A stretch of DNA of 63,185 bases, the filler included, from Basidioascus undulatus (lineage: Eukaryota): NCBI GenBank assembly GCA_000826855.1. It is 8 parts of 8 records of this genome, joined end to end, with 100 filler letters (N's around TTAATTAATTAA, not from the genome) between each part and the next. Parts side by side here need not be neighbours in the genome. Positions count along the whole stretch, not along the records: positions 26,079 to 31,308 come from JTLS01001980.1; 7 more parts are not named here. One strand, written 5' to 3'. The position numbers and the translations under genes were made by a program. The stretch's first letter is position 1; each line of letters begins with the position of its first letter. This document shows, one piece after another, positions 3,460 to 62,819 of the stretch. Under the pieces are notes generated by a model that did not search any database, had not been told where the DNA came from, and saw only the letters and a list, made by a program, of their open reading frames with translations.

Positions 3460-3531
3460 TTCCTCCTAGCCGACTTGAACGACTGACCTCGTCATTACTA
3501 GTGACGCGCTCTACCACTGAGCTAAGGAGGA
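3460..3531 (-). tRNA. tRNA-Thr(AGT), intronless
   Basis: Reverse complement TCCTCCT-TAGCTCAGTGGTAGAGCG-CGTCA-CTAGTAA-TGACG-AGGTC-AGTCG-TTCAAGT-CGGCT-AGGAGGA-A folds as a cloverleaf; a T-run follows. Confidence 0.95.
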
Positions 3532-3988: not shown

Positions 3989-6754
3989 TTATGCCGTCGC
4001 CCGAGCCGCAGCCGTCTCTTCCGCGTCCTCGCCCCGGACGAACGACTTCACACACGCCGCCATCGTGACCGACCTGTTGCGCCACCCAACCCGAGACGTC
4101 AGCAGCACGTCCCGCGCATGGGAGAAACGACGAGAGGAGTGAGGGAAAAGGGAATGGGCAAGAAGACGCACGCCCGGGAGATGGGGTCGGTCTGGTAGAA
4201 GATCTCGATCGGCTTCTTGAACGCCGTGCCGCTGACACTCTTGCCCTGGGAGGCGAGCTGCGCGAGGCCGAGGCCGGTGGAGAGGGTGGAGGGCGTCTCG
4301 GTCGTGTCGTAGCGGACGACGGAGGGCGCGATCTCCCAGAGACGGTCACGGACGCCGATCACGTCCTCGTACGGCAGGGTCTCGCCGACGACCTCCGAGA
4401 GCGCACTGCGAGCCCGCCGCAAGTAAGTGTCAGACATCATGCGATGTGGATATGCGGGCGCAGACGCACCGGATGATCTTCCAGTCCTCGCGGGACGCGC
4501 CGGGAGGGGGAACCGCCGCACGGCCGAGCTGGGCGCGGCCCTCGGTGTTGACCCACGTGACGCCCTTCTCGGTGTACGCAGCACCGGGCAGGACGACGTC
4601 GGCGAACTGCGCGCCGAAGTCACCGTGGTGGCCCTGGTAGACGACGAAGGCGTCGTGGGGGATGGAGGCAGCGTCGAAGTCGTCGGCGTTGAGGAGGTAG
4701 ACGAACTTGGGGGTCGCCTTGGCAGCGTCCGCGGAGGGGACGAAGCCGAGATCGTAGGCAGCGGAGCGGGAGGCGTTCTGTATAAGTATCGGGAGTGAGC
4801 GGGAGGGGCCGAAACGCAAAGGGCGGCAGTCCCAGACTCACGCGTTGCAGGGTGGCGAAGCCGTTCCACTCCGGGGTGATGAAGCGGTCCTTGTTGGACT
4901 CGACGTACCGCGCGAGGGCGGCGTAGACGGCCTCGCCGTCCTGGTGCTCAGCGACCGCAGAGCCGACGACGATGAGCGGCTTCTTGGCGTTCTTGAACTG
5001 CTCCGCGAACTTGCCCTTGCCCTGGGTGAAGTCGAGGACGGCCTGGGCGTCGGTGCCGAGGTGCGCGTATTCGTACGTGGTCTCGACCTGCTCGCCAATG
5101 AGGCCGATCTCCACGCCGTTGTGGAGGTAGCTCTTGCGCAGGCGGGTGTTGACAATCGACGCCTCGTGGCGCGGGTTGGTGCCGATAAGGAGCACGAAGT
5201 CGGCCTCCTCGACGCCGGGGATGGTCGAGTTGAAGAGGTAGTTCGAGCGGTGGTCGACGCCGGTCACGGGCGGGGCGTTGCCGCGCGGGGTCTCGAGCGC
5301 AGTGTTGTCTGAGCCGAGGCGGTTGACGAGGTCCTTGAGCGCGACGAGCGACTCGGTGTCGGCGAGCGCACCGGCGATCGCCTGGATCTCGTCGCCCTTG
5401 GCGCCGGACTTGGCAAGGCCGTCGGCAATGGTGTTGAGCGCGTCGGGCCACGACGCCGCCTGGAAGCGGTCGCCGACGCGGACGAGCGGGGTCGTCAGGC
5501 GCTGGAACTTGAGGCCGTCGTACGCGTAGCGGGTCTTGTCGTTGATCCACTCCTCGTTGACATCATCGTTGACGCGCGGGAGGACGCGCATGACCTCGAC
5601 GCCACGCGAGTCGATGCGGATGTTGGAGCCGACGGCGTCGAGGGCGTCGACGGACTCGGTGACTTTGAGCTCCCATGGGCGGGCCTGGAACGCGTACGGC
5701 TTGGACGTGAGGGCGCCGACGGGGCAGAGGTCGACAATGTTGCCGCTCATCTCCGAGTCGAGCGTCTTCTGCACGTATGTCCCGATCTCCATGTCGTTGC
5801 CGCGCCCCGTCGTGCCCAGCTCCTCAACGCCCGCGACCTCGTTCGCGAAGCGGACGCAGCGCGTGCACTGAATGCACCGATTCATCGACGTCTTGACGAG
5901 CGGGCCGAAGTTCTTGTTCTCGACAGCGCGCTTGCCCGTGACCTCGTGGAAGCGCGACCGGTCCGAGCCGTAGCGCATCGACTGGTCCTGCAGGTCGCAC
6001 TCGCCACCCTGGTCGCAGATGGGGCAGTCGAGAGGGTGGTTCGCCAGCAAGAACTCCATCACACCCTCCCGCGCCTTTTTGACCAACTGTGTTTGCGAAC
6101 GAGGTGAGAATGTGTGCGATGGAGAGAAACAGGCGAGTGATGGGGCGCACAGGCGTGTCGGTGAACACCTTGGAACCGGGCATTGCGGGCATCGCGCAAG
6201 ACGCAACCGGCTTCGGTGACCGCTCAACCTCCACAAGACACATACTGCGTCGTACCAAGCATAAGCATCTATCCCTTTGCACCGTTTCCCGACCCTTTGC
6301 CAGCTTGGGATGCTCCACTCACCGGCAGTTTCCTGCGATCGCCAGCCTACACAGAATCATCCAACCCAGCTACGTTAGCCAAGCATCCAGATGCCCCTTG
6401 AGTTGAAGCGAATGCTTGCCTGTCGTGATAGCAGAACCTGTTCGAGCAGCAGAGTTCAGTCTGATGCTCGGCCCCTGAGACCAACTGAGGACGAACCTGG
6501 GGACGGTTGCGCCAGCAATCTCGCAAGCCTGGATCAAAGCGGTGCCTTGGGGCACAGAGACCTATCGCTCCGCATCCGTCAACGCCCATCCTTCAATCCA
6601 TGGCTTCCCAAGACGGAAGACTCGCCTCCTTGCCGTCGATGGTGAGGGAGATCATCTGGACCTGCTCGCTGAAGCGAGGGGCCGAGGTGGAGAGCGCCCG
6701 CGCCGCCGGCGCGATGCGGGATGTGGACGCGCGGGGGAGAGCGAGGCGGAGCAT
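3989..6754 (-). CDS. NDUFS1: NADH:ubiquinone oxidoreductase 75-kDa Fe-S subunit (complex I), multi-exon, with mitochondrial presequence
   Basis: Spliced motifs [92 protein letters not shown]; Arg/Ser/Ala-rich N-terminus [24 protein letters not shown]. Confidence 0.98.
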
Positions 6755-8677: not shown

Positions 8678-11112
<2,435 letters not shown>

Positions 11113-25978: not shown

Positions 25979-26078
25979 NNNNNNNNNNNNNNNNNNNNNN
26001 NNNNNNNNNNNNNNNNNNNNNNTTAATTAATTAANNNNNNNNNNNNNNNNNNNNNNNNNNNNNNNNNNNNNNNNNNNN
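25979..26078. other. artificial contig linker N44-TTAATTAATTAA-N44 (also at 31309-31408, 36635-36734, 41950-42049, 47262-47361, 52572-52671, 57880-57979)
   Basis: Identical 100-bp spacers with stops in all six frames; the contigs after the first are 5230, 5226, 5215, 5212, 5210, 5208 and 5206 bp. Confidence 0.99.
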
Positions 26079-27331
26079 CGCACTCGCACGTTGTATCGCA
26101 TCGCTGTCGCACTGTAGTACTCGCACATTCATCCCGCTCGCGCGTCTTCGCGGACCCCCTCTCCAGCGCACTGCCGTACCTCGAACTCGCTATTTCCGAT
26201 CGGCCGGACGTCCTGCAGGGGATGGGGTGGGGGAGGGTCTCGACGTGGGACCCGGGCGCGTGGACTCTGCTGGATGGGGGGGTCGTGGCGAGCTCGGTGA
26301 GTTCTGGGCGGGGAGGAGCAGAGGAGGAGCAGAAGGGGAAGGTAGCTGATGCTTGGGGGGGAGAGCGTGAAGGAGAGCAGCCAGTTCGTTGTGGTGCACG
26401 ATCCGTAATTTTTGGGGAGCGTGTGGGGACTGGTGGGCCGGAATGCCACATTATTTGCTTTTGCTTGAAGTCGGATGCAGGGTGCTGGATGCTTTCGATA
26501 GGCGGACATCTATCGAGCGATGGCATGCATATGAGCGGAAAGCGAAAGTATATGTGTCCTAGGCAAAGAAAACGGGACAGGAGAAGTGACAGGAGCGACC
26601 GGGGAGGCGAGCGTTGAAATGCTGCACCGTCTCGAGACAGTGGAGCGTGGCCTTGGACAGGCCTTTTGGGTAGAGGGTGGGGAACACCGGGTAGGTGGGG
26701 TGACTCCGCCGAGCGTGTGTTGGTTGAAAAATCCCGTTGTACCTGTAGCTGTCGTTCTACCCGATCAAAACGTCTGCTTGAACGTTTGTGTCGAAAACGA
26801 CCGTGGGCTGTTGAACGGCTTGCTTGTCATCTGGATCTCGTCCTACCCTCATCTTTCAAACACATGGGAAGTTCAAGCCTTCGGGCGGCTTCTTGCAAAT
26901 GCACAGCTTGGTAGGGTGGGGTTCTCACTACTCTGGCCATGGCAGCCAGCGAAGCACGACACTGTCTACACGCGCTCGAACGTCCCGTGCGCTACCGTCC
27001 GGCTTGCCGGAATCCGCATACCCAGCGCAGGCGCCTAAACGCTCAACGAAGGGGTATCAATTCATTGTACAACACAGATCAACCGCACTTTCAGGCGTGT
27101 GGACGACACAAAGAGCTGGTGTGCACGTCGGCCAAAGAAAGCATGGCAATCAAGCGAAGAAAGCGAATACGAGAAGGAAACAGGAAGCTCAGAGGCGAAT
27201 GAAAACGAGGAGGCACAGAGGAGCACGAATCCCTGACTTGGGTAAACGTTTGAGTATGAGTAGCAGTTCATGAAGAGCGTGGAAAGATTGATCACGCACT
27301 GGCGACGCGGCCGTCCTGTACGTTGGTTCCC

Positions 27332-27578
27332 TTAGGCCACTACGCATTGCACCGGGTTGGTGTATTCTGGTGGTGTAGACGTATCCAGGGGGAAGAATTG
27401 GGTGTGTGTGTTAGGTTAAATAAAAAGAACGGGGCGAGAGGCATCAAGGCTTACGAGGGTTCTTCTCCTCATCGACGGGCGTGCCCGTCTGCGCCTTCTC
27501 GGCGTCGACAGCGACGGCACAGTCGGCAGCGACGGCGGTGTAGGGGGAAGCGGCGGTGATTGTTCCCGAGGGCTGCAT
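27332..27578 (-). CDS. lipopeptide mating-pheromone precursor copy 1 (52 aa, CAAX = CVVA); exons 27578-27455 and 27366-27332
   Basis: Splicing the 88-nt GTAAGC...CTAAC...CAG intron (27454-27367) gives MQPSGTITAASPYTAVAADCAVAVDAEKAQTGTPVDEEKNPQYTNPVQCVVA*: short, with an EEK charged processing site and a terminal CaaX box. Confidence 0.9.
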
Positions 27579-27903
27579 GGTATAGAGTCTTGGGTTGAGA
27601 GGGATTGGGTCTGTATGGGCTGTACACTCGCAAGTGGATGTGGATGTTGAAAGTGGGATGCAGCGACTGCGAGGCAGCGCAGGAGCTGCTTATGTATCCC
27701 TGGGGAGGCGGGCCTTTACTCTCTGGCAACGTTCGAGGAAAAGTCAGCTGACTAAAGCAGATGTCCGTTCTGCCGGGCCCTAATCAGAAAGAGTGGGGTG
27801 AGAGCGAGGAACGGAGGGAGGATGGCCCGCTGAGTTTGAGAGGCCTGAGGCTGGGCGAGGCAGAAAGGAGCGAAGAACGTTCAGTTGCATGATGGCTTGA
27901 AGT

Positions 27904-27912
27904 TGAAAGGGA
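27904..27912. promoter_or_regulatory. candidate pheromone-response element TGAAAGGGA (also at 28059-28067, and inverted at 29721-29729 and 29857-29865)
   Basis: The same 9-mer occurs twice upstream of each pheromone gene in the same relative orientation and shares AAAGGGA with the Ustilago Prf1 element ACAAAGGGA. Confidence 0.5.
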
Positions 27913-28596
27913 ATGAGAACGGAGTGCTTTGATCCGGGCCGGTGAGAAAGCAGACGGCATTTGGGAACGACGGATCGTGCTCGTCGAGCTTGAGGCTTGA
28001 ACTGAAGCTTGATCCTCCTCATTTCAAGGTTTGGCCATCGACTCCGCGGAGCACTGGATGAAAGGGAACTATAGGTAAGCCCAGAGATCCGAACAATACA
28101 CGCTTTTTTAATTCAATGGAGGACCTGGTTCGTATGCCACTGAATGACTTGAGTGGGTTGCGATGCGTTGCGCAAGGAGTGTCTACGTTTGCCTACTGCA
28201 AAGAAAAGAGCCGGCAGCCGCCAACTCAAACATTTTTGTACTTTCTTCGCATAAGCCCGTCATTGGAGATTTGAATAAGAATATATTGAAACCTGGGGAG
28301 TTCCGCAGTCGTTTGTATGGGGCAGTTTGTCGTGCTGCGAGCCAGGTCGTCTCCGCGCTATCAGCAGTTGGGTACATTACGTCTCATTGCTGAGGGCCGT
28401 CTTGACAGAGCGAAATCGTATGATATGACACAAATCCATTGCACATGGAAAAAAAAATTGAAGCTCGCTGCCCAGCGAAGGAAAATTGCTTCTGGTCTGT
28501 GTGTTGGAGCGCACCCAAACACCACTGACAGCACTGGTTGATGTTCTCTGAAAAAAGCACGGCTGAAACCATGCATTGGATTATCCATGGAAGCGA

Positions 28597-29288
28597 TCAA
28601 ACAATAATAACATTAATTTTCGGGGGCAAGCTCTGACGCGTGTCGGTAGCCCGAGACGACTGAGAATACATCGAAGACGCGAGGTGTATGCGTTGCTTGC
28701 CATGCCGGAGCTTCTGTACGGCGGCTTGGACGGGACCGGCGGGGAGCAAGAACAGACGGTGGATCGGCCAACCTCCCTCCTCTCCGGCCTGCCTTAGGGT
28801 TCCTGGGTCAGTGTGACTCTTAACCATACCACGCCCGCCTCTGCTCAGACTCCATTGAAAATGGGATACCCACCATGACCAGCCCGAGGGGTTTGGCCAT
28901 TACTCTCTTCTTGACCTCAATGTCCGACCTTTAGCGCATGATGCTCGGCGGCCACGAGCTCCTGCTCCTCCTCGATCCCACGCAGGTGAGCCAGCGCCTT
29001 GTTCGCCTGCTCCTGCAGGCCGGTTCTCTTCTGTATGAGCGTCCGCTGGTCGCGGACGAGCGCCTCCTCCTCAGCAACGAAGGTATTCTGGCGGTACAAG
29101 AGGGCCTTGATGACGGCGTCCACGGTCGTCTGCGGTCTGAACAGTGGTCGCCAACCGTGAGCTGACGGCGCGTATGAAAGACACATGACACTTGGAAACG
29201 CACGCGAAGATGCGTGTGTTGCCTCGTCCAATCCGGCAGTTTTGAACGAGGTAACGGTCGTCGGCTTCAACCCTTCTTCTCGTTGCAT
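28597..29288 (-). CDS. hypothetical coiled-coil protein between the pheromone genes (exon structure uncertain)
   Basis: Heptad-like segment EEEALVRDQRTLIQKRTGLQEQANKALAHLRGIEEEQELVAAEHHALK can splice (GT...CAG) to AGEEGGWPIHRLFLLP. Confidence 0.3.
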
Positions 29289-30033
29289 TCTGCTAAATCA
29301 GCCATTGTCGATACTCCTACAGCCTCTCATGGTTTGGTCTGAATTGAAACCAGCCTAAATAAGGACAAGTATTCGCCGCTTCTTGTCACTTCGAACGCGT
29401 GGTGCTGCACGTGCAATGTTGGGACTTGGTAGCCCGTAAGAGCTCTGCTTTCCACAACGCTCAGATACTCCTCGGTCATCGATGTGCAATCTTTCTCTTA
29501 TGGCAGGTTGATGGCAAATCATGCACAACCTTGAATGTCTTACGACTTCCGGTCCTTTTCTTTGCAGCAGCACGGGCTTCGTGCAAACTGGTTGCACTCT
29601 GCTTTATTGCACCGCTATAAACTCCACATTGCGTTGTAATCAGTTCCATGCGTCCTAATCGACCGAATAAAGTAGGGCTCCGGGCTACTTTCTATCTTTT
29701 GGGCTCTCGGGGGAGGCAACTCCCTTTCAGCCCGTCCAAACGTGCCCGGCCCGGCCAAACTTGGAAGAGGATCAAGCTTGAAGCTCGCAAGCTCGACTAA
29801 CACCATGTGCCGTTCCCGTCTCCCTCGGCACTGATTTCAAGGGATTCCCTCCTCATTCCCTTTCAGTTCAAAGGAACTCATATCACAGCGTTTTCTACTC
29901 CTGTCTACCTCGCCCCAGCCACTCTCAGACTCGGCGTGCCACTCTTTCTTCGTTCTTCACTCTCCGCCCACTCTTCCTGGTCCTCGCCTACTGAACGCGC
30001 AGCTGCTTAGGTCAGCCGACACTTCCTTGAACT

Positions 30034-30077
30034 TTGCCAATTCCTGTGCACCTTGCCAATTCCTGTGCACCTTGCCA
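30034..30077 (+). repeat. 19-bp tandem repeat, about 2.3 copies (TTGCCAATTCCTGTGCACC)
   Basis: Exact copies at 30034-30052 and 30053-30071 plus TTGCCA. Confidence 0.9.
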
Positions 30078-30217
30078 CCCGATGCATGCCTCCCGCCTAG
30101 GGATACATAAGCAGCTCCTGCGCCGCCTCGCAGACGCTGCATCCCACTTTCACTTTCCACATCCACCTCCCGCTGTACAATCCTCTATTCTCCCTACTCT
30201 ACCAGAGTTTCACTACA

Positions 30218-30465
30218 ATGCAACCTTCTCGGACCTCCGCAATGGTTCTCTGCTACATCACCGTCACCATCGACGCCGGGAATGCGCAGGTGCAGGCGGG
30301 CACGCCTGTCAACGAGGAGAAGAACCCCGGTAAGTCTTATATACGTCTGATTTCCAACCACTCTTTATCCTCCGTGACCGGACAATGCATTATTACGGAA
30401 TACTCACGATAACGTTACTCCCCTCACCAGACTATACCAACCCTGTACAGTGCGTCGTCGCCTGA
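30218..30465 (+). CDS. lipopeptide mating-pheromone precursor copy 2 (48 aa, CAAX = CVVA); exons 30218-30329 and 30431-30465
   Basis: Splicing the 101-nt GTAAGT...CAG intron (30330-30430) gives MQPSRTSAMVLCYITVTIDAGNAQVQAGTPVNEEKNPDYTNPVQCVVA*; same intron position and phase as copy 1. Confidence 0.9.
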
Positions 30466-31408
30466 GGCAACCAACTTACAGCGACTACCGTATTGCCAGT
30501 GGGTGATGTTTCCGCACCTCCCACGACATTCTGCTCATACCCAACTTTAATAACGACTCAGTAACTTCGCCCTCTATGCCTCTCGTCTTTGCTCCGCCTC
30601 GACTTGTCATCTCGTTCTCACGCCTTGGTTGCTCCCCTTTCGTTTGCGCGACGTGCACTCTAGCGCGGTTTATGAAAGTACGGTTGATCTGTTTCATATA
30701 TGACCATGTAGACTTCATCTGAAAGCTTTGACTCCTGCCTTGTCGTGCTGGTGCCGCAAGTCGGCGCCAGTTCAAGCGTGTATCAATTTCTTCCCAGTTG
30801 GCCTCTAAAGCTGGAATTGATTTGGACTCTTTGGCTCCTGATAATTGGCCCTTCAGTTCAACTTTTTGAATGAATGCACCGTTCAGCACTGAGCCAGTTG
30901 AAGCTGCTGTGGCCAGCGTAGCGTCCCACCAAGCGTAACGAGCCGCCTGAGGACTTGCATAAATTCCTTGTGGTGTTGTGAGGAAGAAGGAAGAGATCTC
31001 GGTCACAAGCAAGCCGATCAACATTACACTGTTCTTTGCACGCAATCCGTTCCAGCAGTTGTATGCATCACGTTCGCCGACACCCTACGGAACCGAAGCG
31101 ACAACGAGCGGCGAATGCCCCAAGGGCTTTCTTGCTCTAAATCTACGACCCTACGTGCTTGGGGGAGAGCTCAGATGCTTGGCGGTGAGTGTCGGTGCAG
31201 TTGGTGAATATCCAGTCTGAGAATGTTTGGCTGCGCGCCCTGCCTAAGCTTCTGCACGGCGGAATGGAAGGGCGGGGCGGGGCGGGCGGGGGTGAAGAAC
31301 GGACTGTTNNNNNNNNNNNNNNNNNNNNNNNNNNNNNNNNNNNNNNNNNNNNTTAATTAATTAANNNNNNNNNNNNNNNNNNNNNNNNNNNNNNNNNNNN
31401 NNNNNNNN

Positions 31409-33896
31409 TTTCCTTTCTTGTGCCATTTCCCTGCATTAATCTTTCGTCATCTCTTCTTCGCTCTCCACCCTCTGACGCACTACCGGCTTCTTGCCCTTCC
31501 CTTTCTCTTTCTCCTTCCCCCTCCCCTTTTCCTTGCCCTTCTCCTTCGCCCTCGGCGGCTGTGCAGCAAGAGGCACCTCGTCATCGCTGCTCTCAATGAC
31601 GCCAATGACGTCCTCCTCGATGTCCTGCCCGAGGCGGATACGCTCCAGCCGGCCAGCATGGCGCGCCTCGAGCCGGTCTGTGACCGTGCTCCACGCATAC
31701 CGGTTGTCGAGCGCGCGGTGCCTCCCGGAGAAGCGAGACTGCCTGACCGCCGCGGCTGCAGCCGAGTTGGGGGGCTCGAAGGCGGCTGCGGCGGGGACTA
31801 CGGGGCCGGAGACGAGGGATGGCGAGTGCGAGCGAGGAGCAAGGGTGGAGAGGGGTGAGGGGACGCGCTGGGGTGGTGCAGGAGCGGAGGGAGTCGAAGC
31901 TGTGGGCGGTGGAGGTTGTTGGGCAGTTGTGGGGAGGTTGCGAGAGGTTGAGGGAGGAGAGGTAGGAGTTTGGCGAGGAGCAGCAGCGGCCTGAACAGGA
32001 GCAGGAAGTGCGTGCTCATCGGCTCGAGGGACGATGGGACGCAGCGTCAGCGCGTCGGCGACTATCTCGTATCCCCAGTCGTTGTCAGGGCTGTCCACAG
32101 CACCAACACAATCATGATCAGCGCCATTCCACTCTTTTTCAAAGGCAATCCCTCACCTGGTCGACGGCCCCAGCATCAAGTTCCGATCGAACGCCCACGG
32201 CCCCTCGTCGCCCTCGTTCTTGACCTGGAGCTCGCCATGCGTCACGAGGAGGAGGAGCGGGCCGCGCTCGCGCGCGCCGACGATCGGCCACGCGTCGAAG
32301 AGCATGGTCGATATGGGTGCATGCGACGTGCGCGGGAGGGTGTCGAAGTACTTGAGAATCTCAGTTGGGCCGACGACTGCCAAGTGTGAAAGGGAAAGCA
32401 TGAGATGAACTGGAAGAATGAGAAAGCAGGGGTGACGTGGGGAGCAGACGGACCCGGCTGATTGTGGGCTGTAGGAAAGAAGGGCGTGACGATGAAAGAG
32501 GAGACGGAGAAGGTCGCGTGGGACGTGTAGACGGAGGAGAGCTGCTGGCGGCTCTGGTCGAAGTGACGCAGGAATCTGAATAGCACCCCGCGCGTGAGCA
32601 CCAGAAAAACAAATAGGACAAGGCTCAGAAGACAGCGCACCTCGAGAGAAATGCTCTGACGCCGCGCAAAGTCTCGGGCGAGTCGGAAAAGGAATCCTTG
32701 CTCGGAGGGAGGGTCATCGCAGGCGCAGGCGCAGGCACGGGCACGGGCGCCTCGTCCTGCTCGACAATCACGACGTCGTCATCGTCGTCCCCATCGAGGT
32801 TCACCACGCCCCGCACCGACCTGCGCCAGTCGATCGCGCACCCGTCCCCGCGCTTGAAGACGCGCACGACCGTCTTCCCCTCCTCCCTGAGACGCGCACG
32901 CGCACGTTTGACGAGCACGTCGCGCTCGGGCTTGCGCAGCGTAGGCGCCCATGAGACGAGAAAAGTGCCTGTTGGGCGGGAGGGGTCGAGGTTCGGGTCG
33001 AGCGTGGGGGCAGGCTGGGGAGAGGAGGAGCGCTCGAGCTTGACGGATACGGAGGTGGGCTCCTTTGGAGGGGAGGATAGTGGGGGTGGAGAGACGGGCT
33101 CAGATTTGACAGTGGGAGGAGGTGGAGTCGCAGGAGGTGCAGGAGGTGCGGGACGCTGCCGGAGAGGGTGGATCGGAGCGGGAGATGATGAGGTTAAGGT
33201 GGATGGGCGGGGCGTGATGGAGTTCCCCACCTGCGGCGCGGGGAAATGACCCGAGCGCCTTGGCGGGGGAGCTGGCTGCATCGGCAAAGGCGCGACGCCC
33301 ACCGGCCGGGGGTCGTAGCCCGGTACGGGCGCAGCGACGGCATGCTGCGGGGTGGACCGTCCGCCGGCGTCCCAGTCGCTCAAGCGCGGACGAGGCGGAG
33401 GTGTGTAGCCCGGGAGGAGCGTGAGGCCGGGGAGGGGTGCGCTGGCGGATGGAGCGGGGGGTGTGGGGGCGAAGGAGGGACAAGGAGGCGGTGACGGGCG
33501 GGTACGGGGCGCAGAGGGAGCAGGCAAGCGTGCTTCGGGCGACCAGCTCCCAGCCCGGATGTCGTTCACGCTCGTCCACGACTTGGGAGGCGGTCGGTCC
33601 TGCCTCGGGTACGTAATGCTGCTTGGACCCGAGCTGGAGGGTCGCAACGCAGGGCCAGGACCAGAGTACGGCGTCCTCCCGCTGCCGTACCCTCCGCGGT
33701 GCCCTCCTCCCCTCCATTCGCGCCTTGCCCCACCCACCCCACCACCGCCGCTGCGCCCGTCGGTACGCGACTGAACGGCACTCGCACGTGTGCTCAGCTC
33801 TTGAGGAGCTCGTTCGCGCGGGTCGTCGCTGCGCCGGGAGCTCGAGCCAGAGCCAGGGCCAGGGCCAGACCCTGCGCCGTAGGAAGAACGCCTCAT
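31409..33896 (-). CDS. Pro/Arg-rich protein with an NTF2-like (NXF1/Mex67-type) domain; 3' end near or beyond the contig edge
   Basis: Spliced AFLSRFLRHFDQSRQQLSSVYTSHATFSVS...VGPTEILKYFDTLPRTSH...LLLVTHGE...AFDRNLMLGP...WGYEIVADALTLR resembles the NTF2-like fold. Confidence 0.65.
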
Positions 33897-40442: not shown

Positions 40443-41949
40443 ATGGATTCCACACCCACACAGTCAAGCCAGCCGATGGACGTGGAGCCCGTTTCATCGA
40501 CATTGACGTCCCCCGCGCCGTCCGCGGCGGGTCCGGTACCCACCGCGGCGCGTCGCGCGAGCGGGGACTCGACGGACACGGGTGTGCTCGCAGACGAGGA
40601 GGACACCACCACCGCCGGGGCCGTCAGCGGTGGCGGCGATGCGGACGACGAGGAGCAGGCTGTTGACACGCTTCTCATGATGGACTCCGAGGAACCTTCC
40701 CCGGTGCACAGCCCCGCCGCCTTGGCCGACACACCAGTGGACACCACCGCCGCCCCCGCCTCCTCATTCACCTTCCCCGCCGATTCCCTTCCCTCCGCGC
40801 CCAGCGCGCCTCCGTTCAAGCTCCCCTCCGCGCTCCCGCAGGACATCGAACACATCCTCGCGGAGGTTGTTGAGCACCGCGAGGCCCATCCGGAGCCCGC
40901 GCCGCGGCTTACCCGCCGCGCGGACGCGAGCGAGGAGGAGAGCAGCAGCAGTGAGGAGGAGAGCAGCGAAGAGAGTGAGGAGGAGAGCGGTGCGGAGCGG
41001 CAGGCGGAGGTCGTGGTGGACAGCGAGCCGGAGGAGGGGGAGGTGATGGAGAAGAAGGCGTGCGTTTCTTTCCCTTCTCCCCAGCCCCTTGCCTCCGTAC
41101 CCACTGAGCATGTTCCCTGTTCTCCTCTGACAGGTCCACGAAAATTACCGACGAGAAGCGCAAAGAGCTCCTGGGGCAGCTCAAGACGATGGGCGGCACC
41201 GGTGGCGGGGCAAACGACCGAGACGGGTCGGAGGACGAGGACGAAGACGGGCCCGTTGGGACGGCGCGCGGGCCGACGGCGTTCGCGACGAAGCACGAGC
41301 TCCCGCGCCCGCAGCCTGCGCCGCTCAAGCTCACGCGCGTGCCCGAAGGCGCGCCGCTCGAGCGCATCGGGAGCGTCAAGGCTGTCGTCGGGGAGGTCGT
41401 CGTTGTGCAGGCGGAGGGGACGGGGGTCGTGAAGGTCCTTGATCAGGGGAGCTTGCTTTGCTTTGGGGATCGGAATGTGCTAGGGGAGGTGCGTCTTCTT
41501 TCCTGTTCCCTTTCCCTGTCCTTCCCTACTTCCCTCATGCACCTTCCCTACTTCCCTCCTTCTCCCCTCCCCTTGCTTTCCCACACCACTTCTCGGCTCT
41601 TCGCTGACGTCCACTCCCCAGATCTTCGAGACCTTCGGCCCCCTCACCGCCCCCCTCCACTCCGTGCTCTTCCCCACCCCGTCCGACATCGACCCCGCGA
41701 TCATCCAGCCCGGGCGCGAGGTGTTCGTCGCGCCGGACTACGCCGAGACGGTCGACACGCGCCGGCTGCGCGAGATGAAGGGCAGCGACGCGAGCAACGT
41801 GTGGGACGAGGAGGTGCCCGAGTGGGAGCAGGAGCACTCGGACGACGAGGACGAGGCGGAGGCGAAGCGGCGGAGGTGCGCCCTCCCTTCTCCCCACCAA
41901 CCCCCACTCGTCTCCCTCGCTGGGCCTATGGAGACTGACATGCGCGTTG
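40443..41949 (+). CDS. NAF1: H/ACA RNP assembly factor Naf1, 3' truncated
   Basis: Acidic N-terminus, Gar1/Naf1 domain VLDQGSLLCFGDRNVLGE/IFETFGPLTAP and the signature KGSDASNVWDEEV...SDDEDEAEAKR. Confidence 0.93.
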
Positions 41950-45423: not shown

Positions 45424-45496
45424 TGGACATTCCCGGAATTGAACCGGGGACCCCCTCAATGCGAATGAGATGTGATAGCCCCTACACCAAATGCCC
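45424..45496 (-). tRNA. tRNA-Ala(CGC), intronless
   Basis: Reverse complement GGGCATT...TCTCA-TTCGCAT-TGAGG...CCCGGTTCAATTCCGGG-AATGTCC-A; G3:U70 alanine identity pair; T-runs downstream. Confidence 0.95.
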
Positions 45497-51400: not shown

Positions 51401-52270
51401 CGTTCCGGAGCGGCGAGTGGAAGTGGCATGAGTGGGCGTTTGACGCGCTCATTGGCGCGATGGAGAGGAATCTGGTGGGGTTCACGTACGTCCGGTGGTT
51501 CCGGGAAAGCTAAGAGAAGAAGACGCTGACGATGAAGAGGCAATAGGCTCTGGAATTATAATCCGGCGAATACGGACGATGTGGGGGACACGTGGAAGTG
51601 CGTTGGCGGTGAGGACGGTTGATGTGGGTGGAGTTGGAGCTGATGCGGGCGGGTGGCGGTGCAGCGGGGAGAACTTCAGCTGGTGGAGTCTCAGCCATCG
51701 CGAGGCCGAGCGCGGACATGCACCCGGCGACGAGCCGTCCGCGCTCGAGCTGTGGCGGAAGGGCGGGCGGGTGTTGAAAGCCATCGTCGTGCGTCTCCCT
51801 TCCCCTTCCCCAACACATCTTCTTTCTCTCCCGTATACTTCTCCGTCTTCCTCGAACTATCTATCTGACCCTCCCCACAGCGCCCGTACGCCGCCAAAAT
51901 AGCCGGCACCCCCATCTCGACCTCCTACGACCCAACCCGCATAACCTTCCACCTGCGCCTCTCGCTCGGCTCCCCCCCAACGCCCTCCACGCCCCTCGCG
52001 CGCACCACCGAGCTCTTCGTCCCCTCCCTCATCTTCTTCAACCCGGCCGTGTCTACCACCGCCGGGCAAGCGACGTACGACCGCGCACGACAGACGGTGT
52101 GGTGGGACCATGGCGAGGCGGAGGGGGACGAGGGGAGGGAGGTCGAGATTTGGGTGAGGGAGGGGAAGGTCGTTGGAGGGGTGGGAGCGCGGGAGGACAG
52201 CAGGAGGTGGGCGGCGGCGCTCGTGGCGCTCTTGCTGGCGCTCCTGGTCAGGGTGTGGTTCTTCGCGTGA
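48407..52270 (+). CDS. GH5_12 endoglycoceramidase-related glycolipid beta-glucosidase (EGCrP-type) with C-terminal membrane anchor
   Basis: RGVNLSG, FVGRPF, LRGWGLTFVRLLVTWEAIEHEGPGIYD, HQDIWSRLTGGSGAPGWT, acid/base MNEPHRG, nucleophile IGECGVP, LWNYNP, GENFSW, RPYAAKIAG; hydrophobic tail WAAALVALLLALLVRVWFFA. Confidence 0.94.
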
Positions 52271-61465: not shown

Positions 61466-62819
61466 GTGCTTGTCCTAAGGAGGCCTAGGCTGACAGGTGT
61501 TACGGGACCCGCCAACGCGACGACGCTTAGGGAACTGACCGAAATCCAGAGTATAGGCAAGCTGGGCTTCAAGGGCAAGCTTCAGCAGGGCGTAGACAAG
61601 GTGCTAGCTACGTCGGACGACCTCATCGCCAATTCTTCGGGAGCTTGGACGTACTAGGCCTCGCAAGGCTATTGGGACTCCGTGGCACTCGCGCTCCGGA
61701 GCAACTACATGCTGCCGCCCGGGTCGCTGGCGCCTCCTAGGTGGTTGATCGACAGATTCTTCCCCTGCCAGGCTGCCAGCTTCGAGGTGCATCAGGTCGG
61801 CCCCGACACGTGTACAGGCCTGGTCTCTACGATGTTGGGCAAGTACATTCTGCGTATCGGCAAAGGTCAGGACGTTGTGAAGCGCACCACCGCCACCGAG
61901 GCCATGATGAGCGTGGCGCGTACCAAAGTGCCTGTCCCTAGGACGATAGACAGCTTCCGTTGGGAGGAGAACGGCGAGCCCTTCTGTGCGGGGGTGGTCT
62001 AATATGTCTACGGCTCCACCCTCGAGAATGAGTGGCAGAAGCTCACCAAGGACGAGAAGCTATCGCACGTCGATCAGGTTGTGGAGCTGCTCGCCTGCCT
62101 CCACACACTGAAAAGTGACAGGCTTTGCTCCTAACGACCCAAGGACCGCGGAGGCCCTGGGTTTCCGCGAAGGTGACTCACGCTACTTCTCGGACACCAG
62201 GGCATGGCTGACGGCTCTCGCTGAGTCATACTGGAGTGGCGAGGCCCCTCCTGCTAAGGTCAGAGAGCAACTGGAGGCCGTCGATGTGCCGGAGCACCCC
62301 TGCGTCCTGTGTCATAACGACATAGAGCCTCGCAATATAATGGTGCGCGATGGCAAGGTGGTGTCTATCATAGACTGGGAGTTTGCCGGCTATCAGCCCT
62401 TTATCTACGAGTGGACAGTGTCCGGTACGGGGCTGGGCATAAACTGCACCAACTACGAGTGGTACGTCATGTTTAGGCAAGCCGCTACGAAGCTTCTTCC
62501 GCGTGAGGACCCGGTCACGGAGCGGCTGATCCTTGACATCTTCAACGGACTCTGGAACACCGTATGGAAGAGGAGGAAGATAGCCAAGTTCCGGCTGGAC
62601 TTCATGGCTAAGCACTGCGTTGTTGAGGGTGACCTGTGGGTGCCCCCCGCTACCGCTGGATCTACAACTGCCGGAAGCTACCAAAGCCTCAACTAGATCA
62701 AGAACTTACCGACCATGACGCTGGCCCACTTCCTCACTTCCCTCGTTGTCCGCAACCGGTGCGGTATCTGCGGTAAGAACTTCTCAGGTTCCTCCAACGT
62801 CTGCACCTGCAACGACTAG
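61466..62819 (+). pseudogene. intronless APH-family phosphotransferase pseudogene with possible C-terminal Cys knuckle
   Basis: TKVPVPRTI, YVYGSTLENEW, VLCHNDIEPRNIMV, VSIIDWEFAGY; in-frame stops ending at 61657, 62002 and 62696, one frameshift near 62112; reading through 62696 gives CGICGKNFSGSSNVCTC*. Confidence 0.8.

Follow-up and report, generated by a model that had tools for sequence, protein, structure and literature searches.

The mating pheromones of basidiomycetes derive from short precursor proteins. In the sections on pheromone genes of the published reports, these precursors are described as 40–100 amino acids long, with a C-terminal CaaX box for farnesylation and, approximately 10–15 residues upstream, a charged or acidic pair of residues that marks N-terminal processing (PMC8686365; PMC5473757; PMC8545103), and precursors of 33 and 41 amino acids have been described as well (PMC5295586; PMC8545103). 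The X residue of the CaaX box sets the type of prenyl group (PMC5473757). According to the same sections, it is typical of pheromone/receptor (P/R) loci that the pheromone gene copies cluster in inverted repeats (PMC3236058; PMC8545103), and the genes usually escape automatic detection and are picked out manually, as open reading frames (ORFs) with a CaaX end near the receptor genes (PMC8545103; PMC5103461; PMC5295586; PMC5473757). In a stretch of 63,185 bases from the Basidioascus undulatus assembly GCA_000826855.1 (hereafter the window), we characterized two small genes, A and B, located on a single contig (JTLS01001980.1). They belong to a well-known kind of gene rather than to a new one, and most probably encode, as old paralogues, the precursors of lipopeptide pheromones of the a-factor type.

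Several described systems resemble genes A and B. The MFA1 and MFA2 genes of Phaffia rhodozyma and the MFA1a/b genes of Cystofilobasidium likewise encode short precursors with a single peptide unit, a CaaX box and a charged motif approximately 10–15 residues upstream (PMC5103461; PMC8545103; PMC8686365; PMC5473757). As far as the relevant passages of these reports go, basidiomycete MFA, Mfa and Phb genes also share with A and B the presence of several paralogues per locus, possibly with slightly differing mature peptides, and the frequent location on small contigs; unlike them, A and B have no detectable similarity to any database protein. In Wallemia ichthyophaga, two CaaX candidates were found by hand near STE3, which have in common with A and B the CaaX end and an acidic run (..EREE..) 12–14 residues before the cysteine. 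However, they carry CIIT and CIIV boxes and other mature regions and were reported as plain ORFs, whereas A and B end in CVVA and are split by introns (PMC6738226). The RHA genes of the red yeasts (Rhodosporidium/Sporidiobolus) and the MF genes of Cryptococcus neoformans resemble A and B in their placement in inverted repeats, there in the mating-type region (PMC3236058). The MAT A1 RHA precursors consist of tandem peptide repeats, in contrast to the one unit of A and B, and gene conversion is considered to keep the near-identical RHA and MF repeats homogeneous (PMC3236058), whereas the arms that carry A and B are approximately 64% identical, so that these copies have diverged freely except where selected. 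The MFA1 and MFA2 genes of Saccharomyces cerevisiae have no sequence relation to A and B, and serve here as a model for the presumed biogenesis alone. Genes A and B are set apart by an intron inside the predicted mature peptide and by a second intron in the 3′ untranslated region (UTR); no statement on introns in the coding region of pheromone genes was found in the literature passages on basidiomycete precursors.

The two genes are divergently oriented, with an ATG-to-ATG spacing of 2,639 nt (Table 1). The coding sequence (CDS) in exon 1 measures 124 nt in gene A (41 codons plus one base) and 112 nt in gene B (37 codons plus one base), so that intron 1 is in phase 1 in both genes. It interrupts the same codon, C/AA for Gln in gene A and G/AC for Asp in gene B. 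In gene A, the exon 2 CDS supplies the last two bases of the split codon, ten codons ending in CVVA and a TAA stop; in gene B, it supplies the rest of the split codon, ten codons ending in CVVA and a TGA stop. The spliced products of 52 (A) and 48 (B) residues both start with MQPS, and their ten C-terminal residues are identical. The initial annotation had proposed a divergent, intron-split gene pair here, and rebuilding the models reproduced its coordinates, its phase-1 GT-AG introns and its spliced motif to the base. The second intron is kept at the homologous place in the 3′ UTR of both genes, 32–33 nt past the stop codon. These 3′ UTR introns are 62% identical, a structural conservation that is unusual for genes so small. 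A degenerate pattern for the ten codons, with up to three mismatches allowed, had two matches in the window and none in 100 shuffles, and neither blastn nor this pattern revealed further copies of A or B in the window.

Genes A and B are transcribed and spliced. Three public sequencing runs (X1, X2, and X3, the last from the same sample as X2), none of which is recorded as RNA, carry the contig sequence. X1 and X2 match the contig stretch at 99%, cover 30 of its 30 bins and behave as genomic DNA, while X3 covers 14 of the 30; the 16 bins without X3 cover were not taken as silent. Four joints in X3 contigs skip the introns of the gene models: one from 27366 to 27455 that removes the 88 nt of gene A intron 1 (contig depth 277.2), one from 30328 to 30430 that removes the 101 nt of gene B intron 1 (depth 66.6; the cut can be shifted by +1 to 30329/30431), one from 27231 to 27299 that removes the 67 nt of gene A intron 2 (CT..AC ends on the plus strand, with the cut at +1), and one from 30498 to 30562 that removes the 63 nt of gene B intron 2 (GT..AG ends). 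All four are GT..AG on the strand of the gene, with no mismatches in the contigs, and no skipping joints at these introns were reported in X1 or X2 contigs. Because of the skipping joints missing from X1 and X2, together with the cover of 14 bins, X3 is read as being like complementary DNA (cDNA). Its contigs lack exactly the predicted introns, and therefore both genes are expressed and spliced; the junctions proposed initially for intron 1 of each gene are thus borne out. X3 record 13 (353 nt) holds the whole spliced CDS of gene B without mismatch and covers 30147–30328 and 30562–30663. X3 record 9 represents gene A, covering 27049–27231 with no other letters and 27455–27529, and stops at a repeat node of 34 nt. 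As contig depth is a poor measure of expression, presence alone is claimed from it.

Both genes lie in the arms of an old inverted duplication, recognized by blastn within the contig. The arms match at 64.4% over 807 columns (27291–28036 against 30507–29753) and at 75% over 72 columns (26774–26844 against 31058–30988). Between A and B, identity is 90% in a promoter/transcription-start block (64 of 71 positions, 27630–27700 against 30100–30170), 83% in the last 36 nt of exon 1, 77% in exon 2 and 78% in the first part of the 3′ UTR, and it is 57% in the N-terminal coding part, 49% in the remaining 5′ UTR and 42% in intron 1, which has yet kept its position, its phase and its CACCAG acceptor. In this comparison of two paralogues of one genome, the last 21 codons contain 9.0 synonymous (Sd) and 3.0 non-synonymous (Nd) differences (pS 0.63, pN 0.06), and the last ten codons six synonymous and no non-synonymous differences, whereas the 27 aligned N-terminal codons have a pS of 0.56, a pN of 0.40 and an in-frame indel of four codons. 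With six substitutions placed at random in the last ten codons, the peptide stayed the same in 7 of 200,000 simulations. The constraint at the protein level is genuine and concentrated in the acidic motif and the residues that follow it. The initial annotation had read purifying selection from the shared C-terminus, and these counts agree with it; the identity of the last ten residues stands too, while the five third-position differences listed at the time have become six, a GTG/GTC pair having been overlooked.

The same figures bear on the idea that A and B, though transcribed, are non-coding RNAs or relics without function in an old inverted duplication, and share their C-terminus by an accident of repeat conservation. 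The conservation of non-coding parts of the repeat, such as the promoter block and the first part of the 3′ UTR, fits this idea. However, it leaves all six differences in the last ten codons silent by a chance of 7 in 200,000, and both genes have retained the MQPS start, intron phase, frame and stop, the sole CDS indel being in frame. We consider it very improbable.

The products of A and B have the features of lipopeptide pheromone precursors. Both sizes fall inside the published range for basidiomycete pheromone precursors. In both genes the CaaX box, C-V-V-A, stands directly before the stop codon, with two aliphatic residues and Ala as X, which is an ending of the farnesyltransferase type. 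An E-E-K motif is conserved at −12 to −10 from the cysteine. Each product thus has a variable leader and a conserved tail, with one peptide unit that carries the CaaX box and the acidic motif upstream of it. The initial annotation had called the precursors single-unit, which holds, and had contrasted them with those of Rhodotorula, which is a taxonomic misfit, as the nearest named proteins are those of Wallemia.

In the a-factor route, a precursor is farnesylated, cleaved of its AAX residues, carboxymethylated, trimmed at its N-terminus and exported by an ATP-binding cassette (ABC) transporter. In A and B, the removal of intron 1 joins an exon that ends in ...EEKNP to an exon that encodes ...YTNPVQCVVA. 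By analogy with the a-factor route, we infer the following further steps. A farnesyltransferase would modify the cysteine of CVVA in the cytosol, after which the VVA tail would be clipped and the new C-terminus carboxymethylated. The N-terminal part would be cut at or just past the acidic [D/N]EE(K), to leave a farnesylated peptide of 10–11 residues. A Ste6-type ABC exporter, not the secretory pathway, would carry this peptide out of the cell, and it would activate a Ste3-type receptor on a partner cell. The peptides of A and B would differ at one residue, Gln versus Asp. The exact mature peptides are a guess at the N-terminal cut site, the ten-residue peptides starting at NP that were proposed initially being one of two plausible cuts.

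Similarity searches yielded little. No homologue candidate was found for gene A exon 1 in a search of a protein collection. An exhaustive phmmer search with gene B exon 1 gave one hit, to a protein of 1,114 residues (E 8.9e-5), which had no matched stretches and was rejected as spurious. Scans of the exon pieces against Pfam, including the question of PF08015, returned no family at E values up to 10, and nothing above noise was obtained with Pfam for the two largest neighbouring ORFs. PF08015, the Pfam model for fungal mating pheromones according to the passage on it in PMC8686365, is built on mushroom pheromones. The peptide NPVQCVVA had no match in the published literature searched.

The gene structure bears on detection as well. 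The genomic reading frame containing exon 2 of gene A stays open over 25 codons only and lacks an ATG; in gene B, the corresponding frame gives a false ORF of 26 residues that starts at an intronic Met. Because an intron cuts the coding region of the mature peptide, the usual search for ORFs ending in a CaaX box fails here, and a scan for such ORFs near receptors would miss or mis-call both genes. The initial expectation that gene callers would miss the pair is in line with the exon 2 frame of gene A, and with the finding that no database protein matches exon 1.

Several results weigh against the pheromone reading. Genes A and B lack sequence homologues and Pfam matches in scans that were run on exon pieces rather than spliced products; such an absence is expected, since the genes are short and fast-evolving. 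In scans of metagenomes, neither the degenerate ten-codon pattern nor one for GTPV[D/N]EEKNP matched any locus. No pheromone response element of the Ustilago maydis type, which we take to be ACAAAGGGA, occurs between genes A and B with up to one mismatch. No STE3 was identified by Pfam among the 203 ORFs of at least 110 amino acids in the window, and none of the 87 contig ORFs (7 of at least 110 and 80 of 40–109 amino acids) had a Pfam hit, over the 5.2 kb of the locus that the contig covers. The archived kind of X3 is guessed as "DNA?" with no growth condition stated, its RNA nature being inferred from its behaviour. Finally, residues 8–18 of gene B have a mean Kyte-Doolittle hydropathy of 2.25, and are readable as a signal peptide.

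This last observation, with an Arg before the hydrophobic residues, favours A and B encoding small peptides secreted through the ordinary secretory pathway, with a CVVA end that is not prenylated and an N-terminus that acts as signal peptide. In gene A, the highest mean hydropathy over 11 residues is 1.81 (hydropathy alone was computed), which is weaker than in gene B; this most hydrophobic window contains an Asp, and there is no basic residue in the first 10 positions. Moreover, the N-terminal part evolves near-neutrally by the pN and pS values given above and contains the four-codon indel, and secretion of this kind leaves the focus of selection on the acidic motif and the CaaX end unexplained. 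We therefore regard it as highly unlikely, and retain lipopeptide pheromone precursors as the reading of A and B.

The public runs point to a further gene of this kind outside the window. An X2 contig, record 6 (11,093 nt), runs out at position 27529. Over its first 500 nt it aligns, with mismatches, to exon 1 (27504–27580), the promoter block and two more blocks upstream, which keep their gene A order and orientation. X3 record 10 (330 nt, depth 264) matches 27455–27529 with three differences, and the node of 34 nt at 27500–27533, which is identical in gene A and the third paralogue, has a depth two to four times that of the neighbouring nodes. Together, record 6, record 10 and the depth of this node indicate a third, expressed paralogue. 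By sequence comparison, these data point to a diverged paralogue C, oriented like gene A and situated approximately 10 kb further left, and to a layout in which C (leftward) is followed after about 10.7 kb by A (leftward) and after another 2.6 kb by B (rightward). They provide evidence for a small, expressed pheromone gene cluster of A, B, and C, with at least two peptide variants.

Whether this cluster is a mating-type locus is a separate question. The initial annotation called the region a probable fragment of a P/R mating-type locus, which the data do not show: neither the 5,230-bp contig nor the window yielded an STE3. Linkage between pheromone and receptor genes, as expected of a P/R locus, was not seen within the contig; X2 contigs extend 9.6 kb to its left (record 6) and 10.8 kb to its right (record 8, 14,610 nt). 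We put the chances that the A-B-C cluster is a P/R locus at about even. Pheromone-like genes are also found elsewhere in basidiomycete genomes. Accordingly, A and B might encode CaaX pheromone-like peptides that do not determine mating type, as paralogues outside a P/R locus, in self-signalling or developmental signalling, or as a non-allelic family. The missing STE3 suits this possibility, as do contig depths of 277, 264, and 66.6 in a sample without a stated mating condition, and X1 and X2 contigs that show no second haplotype over 5.2 kb besides cross-matches between paralogues. On the other hand, three copies within about 14 kb, in inverted repeats, resemble known P/R loci in the published descriptions (PMC3236058; PMC8545103), two stretches present in X2 contigs, approximately 9 kb separating C from A and 10.8 kb beyond the right end of the contig, lie outside the scanned sequence, and contigs are unable to prove a second allele absent. 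We hold pheromone-like peptides without a mating-type role to be unlikely, and keep to mating pheromone precursors in what follows.

The conserved block of 71 nt upstream of both genes is, from its sequence, a candidate shared control element of A and B; the transcript contig of gene B starts approximately 40 nt past its TATA-like ATACATAAG. In the window as a whole, ACAAAGGGA with up to one mismatch had 16 matches versus 12.35 expected. The core bound by high-mobility-group (HMG) box proteins, presumably WWCAAAG, had 30 matches versus 21.8 expected, two of them on the contig. These two sites (27927–27933 on the minus strand and 29867–29873 on the plus strand) each lie approximately 350 nt upstream of an ATG in sense orientation. 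As there is no enrichment, the HMG-core sites are a lead only for a pheromone-response factor.

Two further transcripts were observed around the pair. Between genes A and B, a weak transcript (X3 depth 3–5) covers 28964–29162 and 29239–29435 and joins at approximately 29507. From a loose contig end at 29437, which matches the window from 29509 on, a 71-nt GT..AG intron on the plus strand (29436–29506) is implied. An ORF of 126 amino acids on the opposite strand (28917–29297) had no Pfam match and no usable match in the protein atlas, and the intergenic transcript may be a non-coding or antisense RNA. To the right, a strongly covered transcript contig (558 nt, depth 201) matches 31068–31230 on the minus strand, and converges on gene B. 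The match breaks off at 31230, at a plus-strand CT such as a minus-strand acceptor would show, with the upstream exons of the transcript located past the contig end; the scans of contig ORFs gave it no family match.

The window consists of eight assembly segments, separated by seven spacers of the form N44-TTAATTAATTAA-N44 (the first two at 25979–26078 and 31309–31408). The contig with the pheromone genes is the second segment (26079–31308, 5,230 bp, 54.5% GC), and the segments have a GC content of 54–63%. Since neighbours among these joined segments are not genomic neighbours, statements on linkage end at 26079 and 31308. After the first segment, the others are ordered by falling size (5230, 5226, 5215 ... 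5206 bp). The start of the contig is disputed, as its first 55–60 bases (within 26079–26139) differ from the contigs of the public runs: one run contig covers 26079–26139 and then continues in other sequence, and another covers 26134 onward with a different sequence before it. The overlap there is merely 6 nt, and the contig end at 26079 may therefore be a false join. Features recognized in the other segments are listed at the foot of Table 1.

Table 1. Positions of genes A and B, the associated repeats and promoter blocks, and features of other segments, counted along the window.
Feature	Position	Strand	Remarks
Gene A exon 1 CDS	27578–27455	−	124 nt, 41 codons + 1 base; ATG 27578–27576
Gene A intron 1	27454–27367	−	88 nt, phase 1, GTAAGC...CACCAG
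Gene A exon 2	27366–27300	−	CDS 27366–27332 ending TAA; 3′ UTR 27331–27300
Gene A intron 2 (3′ UTR)	27299–27233	−	67 nt, GTGCGT...AGTCAG, starts 32 nt past stop
Gene A exon 3 (3′ UTR)	27232–27049	−	27049 is merely the end of the transcript contig
Gene B exon 1	30147–30329	+	5′ UTR from at least 30147 to 30217; CDS 30218–30329
Gene B intron 1	30330–30430	+	101 nt, phase 1, GTAAGT...CACCAG
Gene B exon 2	30431–30498	+	CDS 30431–30465 ending TGA; then 33 nt of 3′ UTR
Gene B intron 2 (3′ UTR)	30499–30561	+	63 nt, GTGGGT...ACTCAG
Gene B exon 3 (3′ UTR)	30562–30663	+	30663 is merely the end of the transcript contig
Left arm of old inverted duplication	26774–28036		carries gene A; blastn within contig
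Right arm of old inverted duplication	29753–31058		carries gene B; blastn within contig
Gene A promoter/transcription-start block	27630–27700	−	contains TATA-like ATACATAAG
Gene B promoter/transcription-start block	30100–30170	+	transcript contig starts at 30147, ~40 nt past TATA-like ATACATAAG
tRNA	3460–3531	−	other window segment
NDUFS1 (complex I 75-kDa subunit)	4102–6356	−	other window segment
Glycerol-kinase-type FGGY kinase	9172–11080	−	other window segment
NXF/Mex67-type NTF2 domain	32156–32778	−	other window segment
Gar1/Naf1 domain	41108–41935	+	other window segment
tRNA	45424–45496	−	other window segment
GH5 C-terminal domain	51869–52267	+	other window segment
Choline/aminoglycoside kinase-like domain	62112–62693	+	other window segment

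Two genes of other segments were used to place the lineage. The named best hits of the NDUFS1 protein encoded on the first segment were all from basidiomycetes, with Wallemia mellicola first at 77% identity, and W. mellicola was also first for the glycerol kinase exon (82% over 31% of the query). A FastTree phylogeny of NDUFS1 was built over a common range of 438 residues from 21 proteins (20 named, one unnamed) that were picked from the 120 listed so as to span orders. In it, the window branches outside the Agaricomycetes, as the sister of a group formed by Wallemia and one environmental protein (local support 0.991). As the listing held no rows of Tremellomycetes, Dacrymycetes or Pucciniomycotina, this is a placement by one gene in a limited sample. 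The GC content of Wallemia, given as 40–45% in the passage concerned (PMC4500085), differs from the 54–63% of the window segments and from the approximately 55–57% of the window. A genome of the sister order Geminibasidiales is described in the same report as 32 Mb in size with 58% GC, as containing STE3, HD1/HD2 and the majority of the processing genes, and as having an unresolved mating-type (MAT) locus (PMC4500085). In the part of its text available to us, the sexual cycle is called ambiguous, no pheromone gene is named, and the terms "precursor," "mfa," and "a-factor" occur 0 times (PMC4500085). No literature that links Basidioascus with a pheromone precursor was found. It is possible, and we propose it tentatively, that the DNA comes from a Wallemia-related deep branch of the Agaricomycotina with a large, GC-rich genome, in which A, B, and C would be the first pheromone genes of the lineage and would reflect active signalling.

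Pheromone precursor genes are the part of the basidiomycete mating system that is most often absent from genome annotations. The splice-supported annotation of A and B yields candidate ligand sequences that differ at one residue, and an anchor for locating the receptor locus in a better assembly, while the conserved 71-nt promoter block could reveal how A and B are controlled. If A, B, and C are indeed the first pheromone genes of their lineage, a single strain would have at least three genes and at least two mature peptides, co-expressed at high contig depth. This would supply the missing ligand, and would speak for active pheromone signalling, in the form of cryptic outcrossing or self-signalling homothallism. 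For a lineage in which mating has been described, the result would be a routine yet useful correction of gene models; for a lineage without described mating, it would be direct evidence that the signalling half of the sexual cycle has been kept and is used.

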